A stretch of 64,000 nucleotides of DNA from an uncultured Micavibrio sp. (GCA_964531715.1 CAZHEE010000002.1:97676-161675); one strand, 5' to 3'. Shown: positions 2,096 through 62,363, counted from the stretch's first letter. Made by a program: numbers and translations. Notes: generated by a model from the sequence alone, not told the origin.

Positions 2096-3841
2096 TTGGC
2101 CTATATCAATCTTTTTAAAGAGCTTTGGAAATATGCGGATGGCTTTCGGTGGAAGGTTGTAACATTCCTTATTCTGCACATGATTGCGCACCTTTCAACG
2201 ATTGCTCAACCTCTTGTATTTGCGCAAATTTTGAATGCATTGCAAAACCAAAATGATGAAATTATTGAAATTGTGCTCGGTTGGCTTGCAGTATGGGTCG
2301 GGCTTTTTGTATGGTTTAACATATTTCATAGACTTGCAAATTACTTTTGCTATGATGTCAGCTATTGTGTAAAGCAAGCTTATTTTAATGATTATTATGG
2401 CATACTAACTAAGCTACCTTTGGCTTGGCATTCAAATTACCATTCGGGAAGTACAATTAACCGTGTAAACACAGCCGCCGATGCACTGTTTAACTTCACT
2501 ATTAATCATTATCAATATGTAACTTTTTTCATGCTGTTTTGGGGACCATTGATTGCCTTGTTATTTTTGTCTTGGCAGGTCTCTTTAATTACTTTTGTTA
2601 TTGCCATTCTAAGCATATTTGCGATGAGAGTATTTGATAAAAAACTCGTTGTTTTATACAGAAATATGAATGATATACAGCATAAAGTATCCTCTGTATT
2701 TTATGATTATGTTTCAAATATTAAAACGATTATTACGCTGCGCCTTGGTCGCCATACGTTAAAAGATTTTAACCAACAAATTGAGAAAGGCTATGCGCCC
2801 TATATGCAAGCCGAAAGTAGAGTTAATCAATGGAAGTGGCTAACAGTAACATTTGGTGTTCTTGTCATGGAAGCTGGCGTTATTCTCTATTATATATGGG
2901 AGCAATTGAGCCGTGGGGGCACAGTTATGGTTGGTAATGTCGCTGCTGTCTTTCAATATGTTCAACAAGTGAGTAAAACTTATATGGATATAGCCGGAAA
3001 CTACCAACAAATAATTGCATGGCGTACAGATTTTGAAACAGCGAAGCCTATTAAAGACAGCCTTGTTGTAAGTCATTATACGGGTCATGCCGTAACTGAT
3101 TGGCAGGCAATCAAAATAGACAGCTTGAATTTTTCCTATGATGCAGGGAAGAAAACTTTGCGGGACTTTCACCTTTTATTTTCAAAAGGTGAGCGTATCG
3201 CACTTATCGGTGAAAGTGGATCAGGGAAGTCCTCCGTTATGGCAATTTTGCGAGGTCTTTATGAGCCTGAGACTGTTCATTTAACACTTGATGGCGAGAA
3301 CCATGAAAGCTTGTCGCCGCTTTTTGAAACAACCACTCTCATTCCGCAAGAGCCCGAAATTTTTGAAAATACTATTCTTTATAATATCACTTTCGGGGTC
3401 GATTATTCCGAGGTCGATGTCGACAATGCGATAAAACTTGCTTGTTTTGACCGCGTTCTGGCGAGGCTTCCGAATGGGTTACAAACGGATGTCCGCGAAA
3501 AGGGGGTGAGTTTATCAGGCGGTGAACGGCAAAGGCTGGCATTGGCGCGAGGAATTCTGGCCGCTAAAAACAGTTCCATTATTCTGATGGACGAGCCGAC
3601 CTCATCCGTGGATGCGCATAACGAGCTGGTGATTTACGAGAACATCTTTGAGCATTTCAAAGACCGTACTGTGATCTCCTCAATCCATCGGCTGCATTTG
3701 CTCGGCAAATTCGACTTGGTTATCGTGATGGATCAAGGAAAGATAGTGCAAAGCGGGACGTTTAAAGACCTTAAATCGCAAGAGGGTCTTTTCCAAAAGC
3801 TCTGGGATAAGTATCAAGAAAGCGCGAAGGAAGATAGTTAA
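2096..3841 (+). CDS. ABC transporter, fused permease/ATP-binding protein
   Basis: 581 aa with a hydrophobic N-terminal half. Walker A GESGSGKSS, signature LSGGERQRLALAR, Walker B IILMDEPTS. TTG start 5 nt after the rimK-like stop. Confidence 0.85.
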   Translation: MAYINLFKELWKYADGFRWKVVTFLILHMIAHLSTIAQPLVFAQILNALQNQNDEIIEIVLGWLAVWVGLFVWFNIFHRLANYFCYDVSYCVKQAYFNDYYGILTKLPLAWHSNYHSGSTINRVNTAADALFNFTINHYQYVTFFMLFWGPLIALLFLSWQVSLITFVIAILSIFAMRVFDKKLVVLYRNMNDIQHKVSSVFYDYVSNIKTIITLRLGRHTLKDFNQQIEKGYAPYMQAESRVNQWKWLTVTFGVLVMEAGVILYYIWEQLSRGGTVMVGNVAAVFQYVQQVSKTYMDIAGNYQQIIAWRTDFETAKPIKDSLVVSHYTGHAVTDWQAIKIDSLNFSYDAGKKTLRDFHLLFSKGERIALIGESGSGKSSVMAILRGLYEPETVHLTLDGENHESLSPLFETTTLIPQEPEIFENTILYNITFGVDYSEVDVDNAIKLACFDRVLARLPNGLQTDVREKGVSLSGGERQRLALARGILAAKNSSIILMDEPTSSVDAHNELVIYENIFEHFKDRTVISSIHRLHLLGKFDLVIVMDQGKIVQSGTFKDLKSQEGLFQKLWDKYQESAKEDS

Positions 3842-12869: not shown

Positions 12870-12894
12870 CGTCATTCCGGCGCAGGCCGGAATC
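12870..12894. repeat. Solo hairpin, family D (CGTCATTCCGGC-GCA-GCCGGAATC)
   Basis: 9-bp perfect stem ATTCCGGC(N)GCCGGAAT with the same CGTCATT...AATC frame as family A/B arms. Confidence 0.7.
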
Positions 12895-13060
12895 TATTTA
12901 TTGTTTTATCACTATAATATTAATCTTCTTCCGAAGCGCATCAAGTTTATAAAAGAGCCTCTCATGAGCAATCTCCATAAATTATAATATAGGAATAAAG
13001 TCCTTAATGTCAAATGATTTTTCATCGTAGAGTTATAGAGAAGGGGCGTTGTTTTTAAAA

Positions 13061-13878: not shown

Positions 13879-15111
13879 TTATCTGTGGATTGCGGTAAAT
13901 ACGCGGTCATGCCCCCCAAGGTCACGGATAACGCGATAGTCGGTAAAGCCAGCACCCCTCGCAATTTCTGCGATTCGTCCACACTGCCCTGCCCCATGCT
14001 CAAGGGCAAGCAAACCACCTTTTTTTAAGTAGTTTCGAATCTGTGGAAGAATCAAGCGATAAGGTCCCAGTCCATCTGCACCACCATCCAAAGCACTATG
14101 CGGATCATAGTTTTTCACTTCCGCTTGAAGCGTTGGGATATCACAACTTTCAATATAAGGCGGGTTTGAGATGATAATATCAAACTGCCCCTCAACCGAG
14201 TCGAACCAATCAGATAGAATAAAAGTAACGCGACTTGAAAGATTTTGTTTTTCGGCATTGAGCCGCGCCACTGTCAGAGCCTCTTTAGAAATATCAGTCG
14301 CGATACCGATTGCATTTGGTAGCTCATTCAAAAGTGTGAGAATCAAACATCCTGAGCCTGTACCTAAATCTAGTATTTTTAAAATTTCGTCATTACACGT
14401 TTTATCTTGAGATAAATACGTGTAATCCATTTTAGTATTTTCCGATGGATTGCACGTATTTTGCTGACGCAAAAAAGTGCAATGACGTAAGACTTCCTCA
14501 ATTAAAGTTTCACTATCAGGGCGCGGGTCAAGGACATGCTCATTCACGTGAAAATCCAGCCCGTAAAACTCTTTCACGCCGATAATTTTTGAGAGAGGCT
14601 TACCTTTTAACCGTTCAGCAAGCATTGATTCAAGTTTTTGATGTTGTTCGGCTGTAAGATTTAAAGAATCATTCGAAATTAGATCTGCATCGCGCATGCC
14701 CGTGATATGCTTAAGCATCATCCGCGCCTCTAATGATGACCCGAGTTGTTTTGAGATATATCTTAAAAAAAACTCGTCATTACACGTTTTACCTTTAGGT
14801 AAATACGTGTAATCCACCTCACCTGTAATCTCGCCATATAAATCAAGCCACTCAGGATTATCTTCTTGGATAAGGTTTATTTTCCATTCTCTGGAATATC
14901 GCCTTAGTCGCTTTTCCCACTGAACAGCATCTTCCCAATTACCGCATTGCCGGTACCAGACAAGTTTTTTTACATTATATTTTGTTGTAAATTTGCTCCC
15001 TATATTATTTTTATGTTGCCAAGTCCGACCAATTAAATTGGATGAAATACCCTTATAAATTGTGCCATTTTTTTGCTTTGCTAGCATGTAGACGTAAAAA
15101 TCTTTTTTCAT
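13879..15111 (-). CDS. prmC: Release-factor glutamine N5-methyltransferase PrmC, read as one ORF with an N-terminal GIY-YIG domain and carrying an in-frame palindromic insert
   Basis: 410-aa ORF. Residues 1-98 align with the stand-alone GIY-YIG ORF at 16315..16611. The rest has PrmC hallmarks ILDLGTGSGCL (motif I) and IISNPPYI (motif IV) and sits directly downstream of prfA. The true prmC initiation codon is uncertain; an in-frame GTG lies inside the hairpin at about 14818. Confidence 0.75.
   Translation of the reverse strand: MKKDFYVYMLAKQKNGTIYKGISSNLIGRTWQHKNNIGSKFTTKYNVKKLVWYRQCGNWEDAVQWEKRLRRYSREWKINLIQEDNPEWLDLYGEITGEVDYTYLPKGKTCNDEFFLRYISKQLGSSLEARMMLKHITGMRDADLISNDSLNLTAEQHQKLESMLAERLKGKPLSKIIGVKEFYGLDFHVNEHVLDPRPDSETLIEEVLRHCTFLRQQNTCNPSENTKMDYTYLSQDKTCNDEILKILDLGTGSGCLILTLLNELPNAIGIATDISKEALTVARLNAEKQNLSSRVTFILSDWFDSVEGQFDIIISNPPYIESCDIPTLQAEVKNYDPHSALDGGADGLGPYRLILPQIRNYLKKGGLLALEHGAGQCGRIAEIARGAGFTDYRVIRDLGGHDRVFTAIHR
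14388..14487. mobile_element. ORF-less 100-bp palindromic mini-element (family A left hairpin + 18-nt spacer + right hairpin) inside prmC
   Basis: Left hairpin CGTCATTACACGT..ACGTGTAATCC (14388..14428) and right hairpin GGATTGCACGT..GTGCAATGACG (14447..14487). Translated in frame as HCTFLRQQNTCNPSENTKMDYTYLSQDKTCNDE just before PrmC motif I. Confidence 0.8.
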
Positions 15112-15167
15112 TGATTATCTCTGAGATGGATTACACGTATTTATCTTCGATAAAACGTGTAATGACG
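14775..15167 (-). mobile_element. GIY-YIG element copy 1: left hairpin, GIY-YIG ORF, right hairpin
   Basis: Left hairpin at 14775..14815 and right hairpin at 15128..15167 are 40-bp inverted repeats of each other. The GIY-YIG coding part (about 14816..15111) begins MKKDFYVYMLAKQKNGTIYKG. The element fills the prfA-prmC junction. Confidence 0.75.
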
Positions 15168-15172
15168 ATACT

Positions 15173-16234
15173 CTATTCAAACTCTGCCAGGCGGCTGGCA
15201 TTATCTTCTTGTATTAATGCATCTGTAATCTCGCCCAAACCACTCCCCGCCAAGACGCCCGAAAGATTATGCACGGTCAGCCCAATACGATGATCCGTCA
15301 CGCGCCCTTGCGGAAAATTATAGGTGCGAATACGTTGCGAGCGATCACCGCTCCCTACTTGCAATTTACGGTCATCCGCGCGTTCATTCGCCGCCTTTTC
15401 CATTTCGGCCTCCAAAATACGGGAGCGCAGAACACTCATCGCCTTTTCCTTGTTTTTATGTTGGGAGCGGCCATCTTGCGATTCCGCAACTACGCCTGTC
15501 GGAATATGTGTCACACGCACAGCGGAATCAGTGGTGTTGACATGCTGCCCCCCAGCGCCTTGTGACCTGAAAGTATCAATGCGCAAATCCTCGGTTTTGA
15601 TTTCGACATCAACCTCCTCGGCCTCGGGGAGAACGGCGACAGTCGCGGCAGAGGTATGGATACGCCCGCCGCTTTCGGTTTCGGGTACACGCTGAACACG
15701 GTGACCGCCGCTTTCATATTTCATCTTTGAAAACACATTATTGCCGGAGATTGTGCAGACAATTTCCTTATACCCACCCAAGTCATTTTCGGATGTTGAA
15801 TCAACCTCTACGCGCCAGCCATTTGCAGCGGCAAAGCCCTTATACATGGTGAACAGGTCGGAGGCGAAGAGCGCCGCCTCATCCCCGCCCGTGCCTGCGC
15901 GGATTTCCAAAATCGCATTGCGGCTATCGGTTTTTTCCTTTGGAATAAGCGCGATTTTCACGGCATGTTCAAGCGCGGGCAGTTGAGGCTCCAGCGTTTT
16001 GAGATCCTCTTTCGCCATCGCCGCCATTTCAGGGTCGGATAACATCTCTTTAAGGTCGGCAATCTCGCTTTTCGTGTTTTGATAGGCAAGTATCGCCTGA
16101 ACAACAGGCTCTAAATCACTATATTCTTTTGATATTTTGACGAATTGGTCGCCTTCCAACTCCCCCGAAGACATCAGGGAGGTCAGCTCCGCATGACGGT
16201 CAGTAATGGCTTGTAATCGCGCTTCAATGGACAT
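15173..16234 (-). CDS. prfA: Peptide chain release factor 1
   Basis: 353 aa. GGQ motif ([17 protein letters not shown]) and the RF1 tripeptide region (PxT-type IHTSAATV). Confidence 0.95.
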
Positions 16235-16269
16235 GGTAGAGGTTTACATGAAAGTTTTTAAATAAGCAA

Positions 16270-16676
16270 CGTCATTGCACGTTTGCTAAAAGCTATACGT
16301 GCAATCCATAAACGTCAAAGCCCGCATATATTATCATATAAATCTAACCATTCGGGGCTATTTTCCTCAATCAAATTAATCTTCCACTGACGAGAATATC
16401 GCCGCAAGCACTTTTCCCAATTTACAGCCTCTTCCCAAGTGCCGCAGTGATGGTACCAAACCAGTTTCTTTATATCATATCGAGATGTGAATTTACTACC
16501 GATATTATTTTTATGTTGCCAAGTGCGACCAATTAAATTTGATGACATGCCTTTATAGATTGTACCATGCTTTTGTTTGGCTAGCATGTAAACATAAAAA
16601 TCTTTTTCCATTTTATCATCTTACTTTTGCGATTATGGATTGCACGTATTTTTCTTCGAAAAAACGTGCAATGACG
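16270..16676 (-). mobile_element. GIY-YIG element copy 2: left hairpin, GIY-YIG ORF, right hairpin (407 bp)
   Basis: Left hairpin CGTCATTGCACGT..ACGTGCAATCC at 16270..16307, ORF at 16315..16611, right hairpin GGATTGCACGT..ACGTGCAATGACG at 16637..16676. Lies between the prfA start and the ispG stop. Confidence 0.8.
16315..16611 (-). CDS. GIY-YIG (URI-domain) nuclease, catalytic core only
   Basis: 98 aa: FYVYML...GTIYKG...NLIGRTWQH...WEK pattern. 77 of 98 residues are identical to the N-terminus of the 13879..15111 ORF by manual alignment. Confidence 0.8.
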   Translation of the reverse strand: MEKDFYVYMLAKQKHGTIYKGMSSNLIGRTWQHKNNIGSKFTSRYDIKKLVWYHHCGTWEEAVNWEKCLRRYSRQWKINLIEENSPEWLDLYDNICGL

Positions 16677-16701: not shown

Positions 16702-17838
16702 TTAGGCTACTTTAACTTTCTTCCCTACCTCAATCTCTTGCGCTTTTTCCTCCACCATCTCCGCGATATGGTCAACGATAGACTTATCACCGCTATTAAA
16801 CCGATGCGCCTTTTCCCCGCCGATATAAATTTGATGATTATCCGCGCCGCCGCCTGTCAGGCCGATATCGGTCATGAGCGCCTCTCCCGGGCCATTGACG
16901 ACACAGCCGATAATTGAAACCGTCATGGGTGTTGTGATATGGGCGAGGCGTTCTTCAAGTGCCACAACCGTATCAATCACTTGAAATTGCTGGCGGGCGC
17001 AGGATGGGCAGGAGATGATATTCACCCCGCGATGGCGCAAACCCAGCGATTTCAGGATATCAAACCCAACCTTAATTTCCTCGACCGGGTCGGCAGACAG
17101 CGAAACGCGGATCGTATCCCCTATCCCGCTCCATAACAAATTACCAAGCCCTATCGCCGATTTCACCGTTCCGGTTCTTAAGCCCCCAGCCTCGGTTATA
17201 CCTAAATGAAGTGGATAGTCGCACGCCTCGGCCAGTTGTTGATAGGCGGCGCATGCCATAAACACATCCGAGGCCTTACAGGAGATTTTGAAATTAAAAA
17301 AATCATGATCTTCCAAAATCTGAATATGGCGCATAGCGGATTCAACCATCGCATCGGGGCAAGGCTCCCCATATTTCTCCAGTAAATCGCGTTCAAGGCT
17401 GCCGGCATTCACGCCAATCCGAATGGCGCAATTATTGTCTTTGGCGGCGTTAATGACCTCACGTACACGTAACTCATCCCCAATATTACCCGGATTAATC
17501 CGCAAGCAAGCCGCGCCGTTTTTCGCGGCCTCAACCCCTCTTTTATAATGAAAATGAATGTCGGCGACAATCGGCACTGTGACCTCGGGGATAATGTCTC
17601 TAAGCGCGGCGGAGGATTCTTCATCCGGGCAGGAGACACGAACAATATCCGCGCCTGCAATTTCCAAATCGCGAATTTGCTTGATTGTGGCAGGCACATC
17701 ATGGGTGAGCGTGTTGGTCATAGACTGCACGGTGATAGGCGCATCACCACCGACAGGGACGTTGCCGACCATAATCTGGCGACTTTTCCGCCGCTCAACC
17801 ATCCGCCACGGGCGATGCATCATATGTGCTTCAGTCAT
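16702..17838 (-). CDS. ispG: 4-hydroxy-3-methylbut-2-en-1-yl diphosphate synthase
   Basis: 378 aa. TIM-barrel N-terminal part and the C-terminal Cys cluster SCPSCARQ...GCVVNGPGE. Confidence 0.9.
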
Positions 17839-40536: not shown

Positions 40537-41508
40537 ATGCTTAATCCGTTTCAGGCCATGCAAAAGGCAGTGGACATCGTTAATGACAGTGAGCATATCA
40601 AAAATAAAATTGCCGCCTGTTTGTTTCAAACATCACCGTCATCCTCCGACTTGATCGGGGGATCTTCTTCCGAGGGGAATCCTTTGGTCAAGCCAAAGGA
40701 CGACGTTTACATAGCGCGATATAATCATCGCCCTGACAGACTAAAAAACAAGCTCTCACCCGATAAGCGTATAGGTGACAGCAGCCAGTTCCTCCATGCC
40801 GAGGTCGCCTGCATCTTCGCCGCTGACTTTCCGACTGAAGGCGCAAGCCTATGCATCACTGACCCGTTTTGCCCGAATTGCGCGAAAGCCATCAGCGAGG
40901 CGGGGATAGCCCATGTTTATATTGACCATAAAGGTATTGAGAAAGATTTTTTTGTCCGCAGAAGAGATGTGTTTGAGGCCTTGTCACTCAATATTTTGAG
41001 GCAAGAAGGCATTGGTGTTGCCATTCTTAATCGTAAAAAAAGAACATATCAAATAGTGCTTGAACCACAAAAAATTTCTAAAAAAGAAACAGATTTAATT
41101 ATTTTAAAACAATCAGATAATTCAATTTCATTATCTGATTTATTAAAGAAAAATAAAGCGTTTTATCCTGATAAAAATTTCGCGATTGCTTTCATCAAAG
41201 ATAGAGAAGATCAAATTTGCGCTTTTACTATATTTGAAAAATCTTATGATAGCCTTCACGATGTTAATCCATCCGACAAATACAGTGTGATGATTGACCC
41301 CGTCAACCGCCTCCTCTATCACTGCGCGCGCCATGGCTATCAAATTTTGAATCAAGAGATAGCAACAAATATCACCCCCTCGAACCGCGCAATCGTGAAT
41401 GCAATCGGTTATAATATTCACAAGATTATAAGCACTTGGCATGATACAGAGGGCAGTAACCGCAATATTTTAAACGATTTGGATATAATCTCTGTTAAAT
41501 CTTGCTAA
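40537..41508 (+). CDS. Cytidine/deoxycytidylate deaminase-like zinc-binding protein with a C-terminal extension
   Basis: 323 aa. HAEVACI ... DPFCPNCAKAI (H-A-E / PCxxC zinc motif). Residues 34-56 are encoded by a palindromic insert. Confidence 0.6.
   Translation: MLNPFQAMQKAVDIVNDSEHIKNKIAACLFQTSPSSSDLIGGSSSEGNPLVKPKDDVYIARYNHRPDRLKNKLSPDKRIGDSSQFLHAEVACIFAADFPTEGASLCITDPFCPNCAKAISEAGIAHVYIDHKGIEKDFFVRRRDVFEALSLNILRQEGIGVAILNRKKRTYQIVLEPQKISKKETDLIILKQSDNSISLSDLLKKNKAFYPDKNFAIAFIKDREDQICAFTIFEKSYDSLHDVNPSDKYSVMIDPVNRLLYHCARHGYQILNQEIATNITPSNRAIVNAIGYNIHKIISTWHDTEGSNRNILNDLDIISVKSC
40637..40705. repeat. 69-bp (23-codon) palindromic insert, family C-like, in frame in the deaminase-like gene
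   Basis: Left arm CGTCATCCTCCGACTTGATCGGGGGATC. The right arm contains a perfect 8-bp hairpin TCCTTTGG-tcaag-CCAAAGGA followed by CGACG. Encodes PSSSDLIGGSSSEGNPLVKPKDD. Confidence 0.55.
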
Positions 41509-62297: not shown

Positions 62298-62325
62298 TTA
62301 AAACACGAAGGTAATTCTTAGTAGT

Positions 62326-62363
62326 GGATTACAGGTATTTGCTTCGCAAAACCTGCAATGACG
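62326..62363. repeat. Solo hairpin of palindromic family A (right-end type)
   Basis: GGATTACAGGT-loop-ACCTGCAATGACG. Same stem variant as 100..141, with one mismatch. Confidence 0.75.

Follow-up and report, generated by a model that had tools for sequence, protein, structure and literature searches.

Two hairpin-bracketed GIY-YIG genes in a Micavibrio ispG-prfA-prmC operon are very probably members of the Ssn/SRM system

The Ssn/SRM system consists of a single-strand-specific nuclease and its recognition hairpins (Chenal et al., Nat Commun 2025, PMC11893778). SsnA, a GIY-YIG protein with one domain only, binds the flanking NTS/SRM hairpins strictly as ssDNA, and its cuts lie a few nucleotides to the 5' side of the hairpin. 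The Neisseria enzyme neither binds nor cuts dsDNA or RNA, and three further homologues each cut ssDNA near their own motif. Among Ssn homologues, defined by E < 1e-10 to Neisseria SsnA, 71% are accompanied by one or more SRMs in the vicinity, and 42% are flanked by SRMs on either side. The same study reported the architecture NTS-ssnA-NTS and likened it to insertion sequences and to IS200/IS605-REP (PMC11893778). The idea that Ssn units are mobile is hence already in the literature.

A second closely related set of elements is the superfamily of CGTC-tagged REPs, which includes dRS3 of Neisseria as well as RPE-4 and RPE-6 of Rickettsia (Di Nocera, De Gregorio, and Rocco, BMC Genomics 2013, PMC3733652). 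An enzyme partner was not found for these repeats, which "apparently lack a dedicated transposase" (PMC3733652).

Here we analyse a 64-kb stretch of DNA from an uncultured Micavibrio sp. (the window), which contains two ssn units at 14775-15167 (unit 1) and 16270-16676 (unit 2). In each of them, a GIY-YIG ORF on the minus strand is enclosed by a pair of inverted hairpins. Our chief outcome is a re-assignment. The first-pass annotation had not recognised the pairing of nuclease and hairpin as a described system, so that the units looked like a new class of mobile element. The pairing was already published in 2025 as Ssn/SRM, or NTS (PMC11893778), and the units are of this described kind rather than a mobile element of a new type. 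Both are very probably members of the Ssn/SRM system. Each ORF is predicted to encode a single-domain GIY-YIG endonuclease of about 98 aa from the Ssn family, and the flanking hairpins would be its cognate Ssn-related motifs, which are at the same time CGTC-tagged REPs with an unpaired CGTC head, a stem starting with AT, and a C or CCA tail.

The units and an additional ORF-less hairpin pair are located in a compact ispG-prfA-prmC operon, in the same orientation as the operon, and are presumably transcribed together with it. The two diverged ssn paralogues lie 1.5 kb apart and flank prfA. In unit 2, ssn copy 2 (16315-16611, minus strand) is a complete 98-aa Ssn-family GIY-YIG nuclease gene (Pfam PF01541, E 6.5e-10). 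The hairpin on the 5' side of this ORF (16636-16676, minus strand) has its head outward, with the stop codon of ispG (16702) at a distance of 25 nt, and folds with -12.3 kcal/mol (z -5.7); the hairpin on the 3' side (16270-16308, plus strand), also head outward, precedes the start codon of prfA (16234) by 35 nt. In unit 1, the hairpin on the 5' side of the ORF (15127-15167, minus strand) points its head outward and ends 5 nt away from the stop codon of prfA (15173), and the Ssn-family coding part of ssn copy 1 spans 14821-15111 (minus strand; PF01541, E 4.1e-10). The outer hairpin of unit 1 (14775-14816, plus strand) has its CGTC head outward and its CCA tail beside the 3' end of the ORF; its ssDNA fold reaches -11.1 kcal/mol (z -5.3).

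Copy 1 lacks a stop codon and runs in frame through the left hairpin into prmC, the gene for the release-factor methyltransferase. The outer hairpin of unit 1 is thereby a translated stretch of the fused ORF (..VDYTYLPKGKTCNDE..). This 410-aa ORF (13879-15111, minus strand; ORF table and Pfam) leads from Ssn copy 1 through the hairpin-encoded linker to PrmC with an internal hairpin-pair insertion, and the identical 410-aa gene occurs in the gene calls of JGI metagenome assemblies. Hence, of the 98-codon ORF that had been proposed for each unit, the one in unit 2 stands and the one in unit 1 does not. The ORF-less pair within prmC (14388-14487) has a plus-strand hairpin (14388-14429) and a minus-strand hairpin (14446-14487), arranged heads out around a 16-nt spacer. 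It is in frame and adds about 34 residues between the PrmC_N and methyltransferase domains. Aligned PrmC proteins have a 23-column gap at the site of the hairpin pair in 12 of 12 homologues, and the pair thus appears to be an insertion in PrmC. The units and the pair alike read as insertions into the ispG-prfA-prmC operon. Elements of this kind would then be able to enter an essential gene in frame and to fuse their nuclease to a host protein.

The sequence CGTCATTRCACGTTT (with at most 2 mismatches) has 8 copies in 64 kb where 0.28 are expected, a number that was reached in 0 of 100 shuffles. Four copies sit at the exact unit ends (14775, 15167, 16270, and 16676), two form the ORF-less pair (14388/14487), and two are solo (141 and 62363). 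Both solo hairpins belong to the unit-hairpin subfamily and are on the minus strand: one (99-141) has the stem ATTACAGGT with a compensating change and lies 20 nt past the stop of a minus-strand ORF, the other (62325-62363) is between convergent ORFs. Altogether the window holds 10-11 hairpin copies, one dimer among them. Within each unit, the left hairpin is the reverse complement of the right one (inverted repeats I10, 18/18, and I8, 85% over 27 nt). The bracketing of both units by hairpins and the mutual complementarity of these hairpins, two observations of the first-pass annotation, are therefore well founded.

The unit hairpins start with CGTCAT and end with ATCCA. Their stem is ATTRCACGT, with an extended and bulged inner stem, and among the hairpins it exists in an A-type (ATTACACGT) and a G-type (ATTGCACGT). 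A 9-bp stem, as originally suggested, is too short for most copies, which form up to about 15 pairs interrupted by a conserved bulge of one base. The 10-17 nt between the outer stems mostly pair as a further 3-6 bp after this bulge. When folded as ssDNA, the six hairpins of the units and the pair reach -9.9 to -12.3 kcal/mol, with z-scores from -3.5 to -5.7. The stem covaries: 98.2% of cells are paired, compensatory changes are found in 5 of 8 pairs, and the observed score was reached in 0 of 500 shuffles. G2, T3, C4, A5, and T6 as well as the post-stem A, T, and C are invariant in 30 of 30 copies, and the unpaired CGTC head and the post-stem C are kept across phyla. The hairpins that flank the two ssn copies in the window are about 90% alike and conserved more strongly than synonymous sites.

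One could argue that the hairpins act at the RNA level, where they would terminate, stabilise, or attenuate transcripts of the ispG-prfA-prmC operon, and that the GIY-YIG genes are incidental neighbours. CGTC-tagged REPs are found mainly just 3' of genes, and an action at the RNA level has been proposed for them (PMC3733652). The two solo copies are 20-28 nt past stop codons, and every element has the same orientation as operon transcription. However, no T-tract follows the stems, and a promoter and terminator scan found no excess of terminator-like sites, so that we dropped the terminator reading; a search against Rfam gave chance-level matches only. The unpaired CGTC head and the post-stem C, both conserved, are positions important for cleavage and binding by SsnA, which does not bind RNA (PMC11893778). 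The gene-hairpin pairing also recurs in several phyla. An RNA-level function with an incidental nuclease is therefore very improbable.

If the unit hairpins are SRMs, one might expect the published SRM motif, HGTCWYN(0-2)YYVSBRHN(0-5)WNVSBRGN(0-2)RNCYNB, to find them. It misses all six hairpins of the units and the pair, because their stem ATTRCACGT is not pyrimidine-rich and their loop region is 10-17 nt instead of 0-5 nt. The only matches in the window are two canonical hairpins on the plus strand with loops of 4 and 5 nt, at 12870-12897 (CGTCATTCCGGCGCAGGCCGGAATCTAT; without an adjacent nuclease gene) and at 40637-40667 (CGTCATCCTCCGACTTGATCGGGGGATCTTC; within a predicted ORF or at its 5' end). 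The hairpins that flank homologues at 41-51% identity do match the motif. The published motif is a search heuristic rather than a definition, and surveys that use it will undercount Ssn/SRM, since a clade like ours escapes it.

One line of evidence for the assignment is the protein. PF01541 covers residues 5-79 of 98, and Pfam detects no second domain, in line with the bare GIY-YIG core without a separate DNA-binding domain that had been noted before; we can add a short, conserved C-terminal tail with the Ssn-specific motif RQWKINLIExxNPEWxDLY. Both ORFs are GIY-YIG genes by their Pfam matches, as was also claimed, and their earlier manual alignment (77/98 identical) agrees with the 77 of 97 identical residues that we find. 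The window protein encoded by copy 2 is 44% identical to the 94-aa SsnA orthologue of N. gonorrhoeae, our comparison partner in place of the meningococcal protein itself, without gaps over 90 residues (pairwise BLASTP, E 1e-28), and profile comparison (hhalign) of the two gives a probability of 100%. With tblastn, it matches the N. gonorrhoeae chromosome at E 1e-18 (7.3-Gb database), and it passes the homology threshold of E < 1e-10 to SsnA. The Neisseria reference was taken from a gonococcal chromosome that is catalogued as a plasmid in PLSDB. There, the gene lies amid 16 canonical NTS repeats, and its product carries the residues that were mutated in the work on SsnA (Y6, Y17, and E64; PMC11893778). 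Both window copies have the equivalents Y8, Y19, and E66. Across 33 homologues there is no variation at Y19, G21, R29, H33, and E66, and at least 90% have Y8; copy 2 keeps Y8, Y19, R29, H33, and E66. Among the matches listed, homologues are mostly about 90-125 aa long. NCBIfam has no model that matches the window protein. In CDD the Ssn family is entry cd10448 (GIY-YIG_unchar_3).

A second line of evidence is the association of gene and hairpin in other genomes, a check that had been proposed for the units. A homologue scan of genome contigs gave 9 loci, and heads-out CGTC hairpins are found on both sides of the ORF in all 8 of the 8 with both flanks available. The same is true for 8 of 8 loci of the closest clade (16/16 together), and the association is repeated in several phyla. 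In IMG/VR, a strict heads-out scan found hairpins on both sides in 15 of 46 loci. This figure is low because the filter is strict: most of the ten cases without a hit that we inspected have SRM-like inverted repeats in other arrangements. Together with the homology to Ssn, the 16 bracketed loci argue that nuclease and hairpins would work as a pair, as the first-pass annotation had suggested.

How the pair might act can be deduced from four purified homologues. By analogy, Ssn would bind the hairpin only in single-stranded DNA such as arises in replication, repair, or DNA uptake, would recognise only the CGTC..CCA strand, and would nick it on the 5' side of the CGTC head, at a distance of a few nucleotides. 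Since the heads point outward, one cut is expected just outside each unit end, one per strand. To our knowledge, GIY-YIG hydrolases form no covalent intermediate and hence cannot rejoin DNA by themselves. Any spread would therefore most likely be through host recombination or repair after nicking by Ssn. It could proceed like homing or like a REPIN, with hairpin pairs as the ORF-less form and SRM-ssn-SRM as the ORF-bearing form. The cruciform or RNA substrates considered earlier do not fit what has been measured: Neisseria SsnA acts on ssDNA only, and the three other homologues cut ssDNA (PMC11893778).

Are the units then active selfish transposons, in which the GIY-YIG protein serves as an IS-like transposase that cuts the hairpin ends, excises or copies the 0.4-kb unit, and mobilises ORF-less pairs in trans? 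A single gene inside terminal inverted repeats, the presence of ORF-less pairs and solo hairpins, and the in-frame insertion in prmC all suggest so, and the same idea has been raised in the published discussion (PMC11893778). The state of comparable sites elsewhere points in the same direction, as one site can be empty, hold a pair, or be filled, with the ORF in either orientation. In one genome (L080), ispG, prfA, and prmC are joined by a 3-nt gap and directly abutting junctions, an empty operon. The metagenome scan with a PrfA query gave one close relative (L013; PrfA 87%), in which the neighbours differ on both sides of prfA and a degenerate solo hairpin is found. Loci with hisS-prfA have a hairpin pair alone upstream of prfA, and L078 has a pair upstream of prfA that is filled by an ssn ORF in the opposite orientation. 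Sites beside prfA are hence empty, occupied by a hairpin pair, or occupied by a full unit, in distant taxa where gain and loss are inseparable. We toned down the notion of a multi-lineage hot spot upstream of prfA: all seven pair loci share hisS-prfA synteny, so that they may go back to one ancestral insertion in one clade rather than to repeated targeting.

Several observations stand against active transposition. First, reading the flanks of all six hairpin heads showed no target-site duplication. Second, we saw no near-identical unit copies; nucleotide identity between the two ssn copies is 75% (pN 0.125, pS 0.78), and their synonymous sites are saturated, hence they are ancient and the window shows no recent transposition. 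Third, outward heads would place the two predicted cuts on different strands, one at either end of the unit, which does not yield a single-stranded circle as in IS200/IS605. Fourth, we know of no strand-transfer chemistry in the GIY-YIG superfamily. Fifth, both copies are under purifying selection (third codon positions account for 47 of 73 differences) and co-oriented within an essential operon. Sequence searches with Pfam also found no recognised transposase (DDE, HUH-Y1, serine or tyrosine recombinase) in the units, GIY-YIG being the sole domain. An active transposon thus seems doubtful, and Ssn/SRM in the window genome is old, kept by selection, and not recently active. Given the age of the copies, the purifying selection, and the lack of target-site duplications and near-identical copies, mobility is something that we infer.

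Alternatively, the units could be a domesticated and now immobile host system. As in Neisseria meningitidis, Ssn may filter DNA in a restriction-like way: it would cut ssDNA that enters the cell or becomes exposed, at genomic hairpins, and would limit recombination nearby, with the flanking hairpins mainly linking the gene to its motif or regulating it. In Neisseria, the transformation phenotypes of strains with ssnA knocked out or complemented depend on NTS repeats (PMC11893778). The purifying selection on both window copies and the conservation of the hairpins beyond that of synonymous sites fit such a role. Furthermore, the position downstream of prfA is common to a 71%-identical homologue (L093-L095), which suggests long residence. 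Domestication nevertheless leaves unexplained why hairpin pairs sit in frame inside genes and why the gene is almost always bracketed by its own motif. We regard a purely domesticated system as a serious possibility that still falls short of even odds; it overlaps with membership in Ssn/SRM rather than excluding it.

If Ssn units do spread, Ssn might be the mobilising enzyme that has long been missing for the whole CGTC-REP superfamily, including dRS3 and the in-frame RPE-4 and RPE-6. Heads-out pairs would be the ORF-less form (REPIN-like or an empty homing site) and SRM-ssn-SRM the autonomous form, spreading by ssDNA nicking and host recombination, and the series from empty ispG-prfA junction to solo hairpin, pair, and unit filled in either orientation would be the record of this process. 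We put this forward tentatively, and consider it rather unlikely at present. The empty, pair-only, and filled series beside prfA bears on whether Ssn spreads CGTC-tagged repeats, which both earlier studies left open (PMC11893778, PMC3733652). A new cognate pair of nuclease and hairpin is also of practical interest, because the Ssn family is under development as a sequence-specific ssDNA tool.

Among other small GIY-YIG proteins, UPF0213/YhbQ shares the stand-alone domain of about 100 aa. In a PDB search, which found no Ssn structure, its members were weak matches (1zg2, E 6e-4; 1ywl, 0.13), and unlike them the window protein has the Ssn-specific C-terminal motif. We know of no reported hairpin association of UPF0213/YhbQ proteins. 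A homing endonuclease of the I-TevI type, whose nuclease domain is joined to a DNA-binding domain and whose gene sits in an intron or stands free in a phage genome, does not fit, as the protein has 98 aa, no separate DNA-binding domain, and a chromosomal operon context.

The parallel with RAYT-REP, already drawn in the first-pass annotation, is apt. In RAYT-REP/REPIN and IS200/IS605 systems, too, a small gene is flanked by inverted hairpin repeats that occur throughout the genome, hairpin doublets are the likely non-autonomous form, the substrate is ssDNA, and domestication is probable. Their enzymes, however, are HUH/Y1 proteins with a covalent intermediate, whereas Ssn is an unrelated GIY-YIG hydrolase whose transposition is hypothetical. 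The repeat head of RAYT-REP is GTAG, not CGTC.

CGTC-tagged REPs share the unpaired CGTC (or TGTC) head, an AT-starting stem of 8-9 bp, the CCA tail, an arrangement as inverted dimers, of which the window has one, and in-frame intragenic dimers that add 20-30 residues, and they are found mostly in Alphaproteobacteria (PMC3733652). Their loops are 4-5 nt long, in contrast to the 10-17 nt between the outer stems of the window hairpins, which themselves pair.

The closest system is Ssn/SsnA. The window differs in the stem ATTRCACGT, the extended and bulged inner stem, and the longer loop region, all missed by the degenerate SRM motif; in having paralogues on either side of prfA, one of them fused in frame to prmC; and in the activity of its clade, which is predicted from sequence alone. 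The two agree in several features: a single-domain GIY-YIG protein of about 94-98 aa that keeps the catalytic Tyr, Tyr, and Glu, a gene between hairpins in inverted orientation whose heads read CGTCAT and whose tails read ATCC, further ORF-less hairpin copies in the genome, and a host among the Alphaproteobacteria, where the Ssn family is common.

Two GIY-YIG genes bracketed by hairpins are present in the window. Unit 1 (14775–15167, 393 bp) consists of a hairpin, a minus-strand GIY-YIG ORF and a second hairpin, and unit 2 (16270–16676, 407 bp) has the same layout. On the plus strand the first hairpin of each unit reads CGTCATT[A/G]CACGT..ACGTG[T/C]AATCCA, from the CGTC head to the CCA tail, and the closing hairpin is its reverse complement (TGGATT..AATGACG). 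The 15-nt head motif occurs eight times in the 64-kb window, where 0.28 occurrences are expected by chance. A repeat finder also detects the inverted arms, which are complementary at 18/18 positions in unit 1 and at 85% over 27 nt in unit 2; both ORFs match the GIY-YIG Pfam family (E about 1e-10), and the products of the two genes, ssn copies 1 and 2, are identical at 77/97 residues. Folded as ssDNA, the six hairpins of the units and of a nearby ORF-less pair reach −9.9 to −12.3 kcal/mol (z −3.5 to −5.7), most of them with a stem of ~15 pairs and a conserved one-base bulge. Motif scan, repeat finder, Pfam and folding show that the two units described in the first-pass annotation are real. A minus-strand GIY-YIG ORF is indeed found in both, except that in unit 1 it lacks a stop codon and runs into prmC.

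One base on the 3′ side of the extended inner stem is always unpaired (..AAA-T-ACGTG..), in the hairpins at 14775, 15167, 16676, 14388 and 62363 and in a comparison locus (L001, 2941–2979). The inner stem varies with compensation (TTTTACC/GGTAAA, TTTTATC/GATAAA, TTTTTTC/GAAAAA) while the bulge stays constant across copies.

Both nuclease ORFs are co-oriented with ispG (16702–17838, minus strand), prfA (15173–16234, minus strand) and prmC (within the minus-strand ORF 13879–15111). Unit 2 occupies the gap between ispG and prfA, its hairpins 25 nt off the ispG stop and 35 nt off the prfA start; the prfA stop is 5 nt from the start of unit 1. ORF 13879–15111 would encode a GIY-YIG::PrmC fusion of 410 aa, in which the stop-less ssn copy 1 continues through the hairpin (..VDYTYLPKGKTCNDE..) into prmC; alternatively, translation of prmC may begin at an internal start. 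The same 410-aa fused gene appears in gene calls of JGI metagenome assemblies. We aligned it with 12 PrmC homologues from PrfA-centred metagenome loci. About the first dozen PrmC residues are replaced by unit 1, with hairpin-encoded residues in their place, and the ORF-less pair (14388–14429, plus strand, and 14446–14487, minus strand; heads outward, 16-nt spacer) is a 23-column gap in 12/12 homologues. The pair lies in frame in the linker between PrmC_N and the methyltransferase domain and encodes ~34 residues. In a metagenome locus with a compact operon (L080), ispG and prfA are 3 nt apart and prmC begins directly at the prfA stop. Given these abutting genes and the gaps in the PrmC homologues, both units and the ORF-less pair are insertions into what was ancestrally a compact operon.

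A structure-aware scan of the window located the copies outside the units. Two solo hairpins of the unit subfamily lie at 99–141 and 62325–62363, both on the minus strand and 20–28 nt past stop codons. Two canonical-type hairpins, at 12870–12897 and 40637–40667 (both plus strand), match the published SRM motif. They are other SRM types, whose cognate nuclease gene is absent from the window; no third GIY-YIG gene was found within it. With these types besides that of the units, the genome has at least two to three hairpin families.

How old are the insertions? Between the two ssn copies pS is 0.78, which is saturated, and pN is 0.125; third codon positions account for 47/73 differences. On these substitution patterns purifying selection acts on both genes, and the event that gave two copies, whether duplication or double acquisition, is old. 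The unit hairpins are ~90% alike between units, far above synonymous-site conservation, and each unit carries one stem variant in both of its hairpins (A-type in unit 1, G-type in unit 2). This combination fits a constraint imposed by protein recognition. One could argue that the units are an active IS-like transposon, but the hallmarks of recent movement are missing. No target-site duplication was seen in the flanks of the units or the pair.

Searching genomes with the 98-aa protein yielded nine loci, which belong to Alpha- and Gammaproteobacteria and Nitrospirota. Heads-out hairpins bracket the ORF in 8/8 loci with both flanks, and their head (CGTCAT) and tail (ATCC(A)) are kept while the stems vary (ATCCCGCGG, ATTCCCCGA, ATCCCCGG, ATCACCCGA and others). 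When 30 hairpins from the window and these loci are aligned, 98.2% of stem cells are paired and five of the eight pairs show compensatory changes, a covariation score reached in 0/500 shuffles; slid controls collapse. One could also argue that the hairpins act at the RNA level and that the nuclease gene is incidental. This is contradicted by the conservation of the unpaired head and tail, by the association of gene and hairpin across phyla, and by the promoter/terminator and Rfam scans, which gave no terminator or Rfam signals. A strict filter applied to 46 independently sampled IMG/VR loci found 15 with heads-out CGTC hairpins on both sides and nine with them on one side. Most of the ten cases with none that we inspected have SRM-like inverted repeats in other arrangements, some with heads inward. 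In three IMG/VR loci (L105, L108, L142) the heads point inward, with GACG beside the ORF; hence motif orientation relative to the gene varies across the family.

In the closest protein clade (64–71% identity) we traced contig contexts of the type prfA-ssn (L093–L095) and sufB-ssn-sufC (L096–L102). One of these proteins (P0004) is encoded directly downstream of prfA, as in unit 1, and three different proteins (P0016, P0022, P0026) are each encoded between sufB and sufC. The genes have the orientation of the host genes and flanking hairpins of the CGTCATTRCACG[G/C] type. That the closest homologues sit inside housekeeping operons suggests long residence or preferred sites.

The neighborhood of prfA could be compared across 80 PrfA-centred loci (470 kb). 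Twelve of ~19 convincing CGTC hairpins lie no more than 140 nt upstream of prfA, a zone that makes up 3.3% of bases. Five loci (L016, L017, L035, L048, L049) have a heads-out pair upstream of prfA with ~20–40 nt between the hairpins, and two more (L022, L026) appear from their sequence to have a similar one; the pairs are about 40–140 nt from prfA. In L078 the pair at the same position (2579–2981) encloses an ssn ORF of 46% identity on the strand opposite to prfA, the reverse of the orientation in unit 2. The seven pair loci, L078 included, share hisS upstream, and with this hisS-prfA synteny they may be one clade. In L013, the sole close relative, the position of the inner hairpin of unit 2 holds a degenerate solo hairpin. 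Its PrfA and IspG are both 87% identical to those of the window. The ispG-prfA gap of L013 holds a 199-aa antisense ORF (2294–2893, minus strand) without a nuclease unit, and prfA is followed by a gene other than prmC, so the neighborhood is rearranged. As far as sequence can tell, ORF-bearing and ORF-less forms take equivalent sites, in a series that gives no direction of change. The series of empty, pair-only and filled sites bears on whether Ssn spreads CGTC repeats.

The CGTC-tagged REP superfamily was defined by an unpaired CGTC head, an 8–9-bp stem starting with AT, a CCA tail and a loop of 4–5 nt. Chiefly alphaproteobacterial and with frequent inverted dimers, it was said to “apparently lack a dedicated transposase”; among its members are dRS3 of Neisseria and RPE-4/RPE-6 of Rickettsia, which are in frame (Di Nocera et al. 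2013, PMC3733652). A protein was linked to such repeats by Chenal et al. (2025, PMC11893778), who call CGTCATTCCCGCGMAVGCGGGAATCYRG the NTS and a wider version the SRM. Their ssnA (cd10448) is a 94-aa single-domain GIY-YIG gene associated with these repeats, with an SRM near 71% of homologues and SRMs on both sides of 42%. N. meningitidis SsnA binds the hairpin solely as ssDNA (not as dsDNA, RNA or the reverse strand), and its cut falls a few nucleotides 5′ of the motif. Binding depends critically on the cytosine that follows the palindrome, and cutting on the three bases that precede it. Homologues from two other Neisseria species and Wolbachia each cut ssDNA near their own motif, and ssnA limits transformation by NTS-bearing DNA. 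The authors likened NTS-ssnA-NTS to an insertion sequence, IS200/IS605 and REP and proposed domestication; mobility was not shown (PMC11893778).

Our Neisseria reference is the N. gonorrhoeae orthologue, not the meningococcal protein itself. It was obtained by tblastn of PLSDB, from a 2.17-Mb replicon (L103, NZ_CP119140.1). This replicon is filed there as a plasmid, is almost without annotation and looks like the chromosome. The unannotated ORF of 94 aa has Y6, Y17 and E64, which were mutated in the published work (PMC11893778), and 16 canonical NTS repeats surround it within 3.3 kb. The window protein aligns with it ungapped over 90 residues (44% identity, E 1e-28), and a 33-sequence profile matches it with a probability of 100%. 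In this profile Y19, G21, R29, H33 and E66 are invariant, Y8 is present in at least 90% of sequences, and a C-terminal motif, RQWKINLIExxNPEWxDLY, is conserved. Searching with the profile gave at least 7,994 homologues.

In the best-supported reading, an Ssn nuclease gene and the recognition hairpins that bracket it make up each unit. If it behaves like the homologues that have been assayed, the enzyme would bind the CGTC..CCA strand when single-stranded and nick just outside the head, with one cut per strand and one per unit end. GIY-YIG enzymes hydrolyse DNA and form no covalent intermediate. Hence, any spread must use host repair or recombination, presumably by a homing-like or REPIN-like route. 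That the units serve only as a domesticated ssDNA restriction function, as in Neisseria, also fits the data; this view overlaps with the reading of a gene bracketed by its recognition hairpins rather than excluding it.

The units are real yet not new. The pairing, which the first-pass annotation did not recognise as a described system, is Ssn/SRM, published in 2025 (PMC11893778), and the units are a member with a variant hairpin. What remains of interest is a hairpin clade missed by the published SRM search motif, and the in-frame prmC insertion together with the Ssn::PrmC fusion. The ORF-flanking hairpins of the window do not match the published degenerate motif: their stem lacks the pyrimidine richness it requires, and their inter-stem region exceeds the length it allows. 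The motif is a tool for searching and does not amount to a definition. Compared with Ssn/SRM, the hairpins differ in stem and inter-stem region but retain head, tail, stem register and gene association, and it is for these retained features that we file the units there. The ORF-less pair inside prmC represents the phenomenon already seen in Rickettsia with the in-frame RPE-4/RPE-6.
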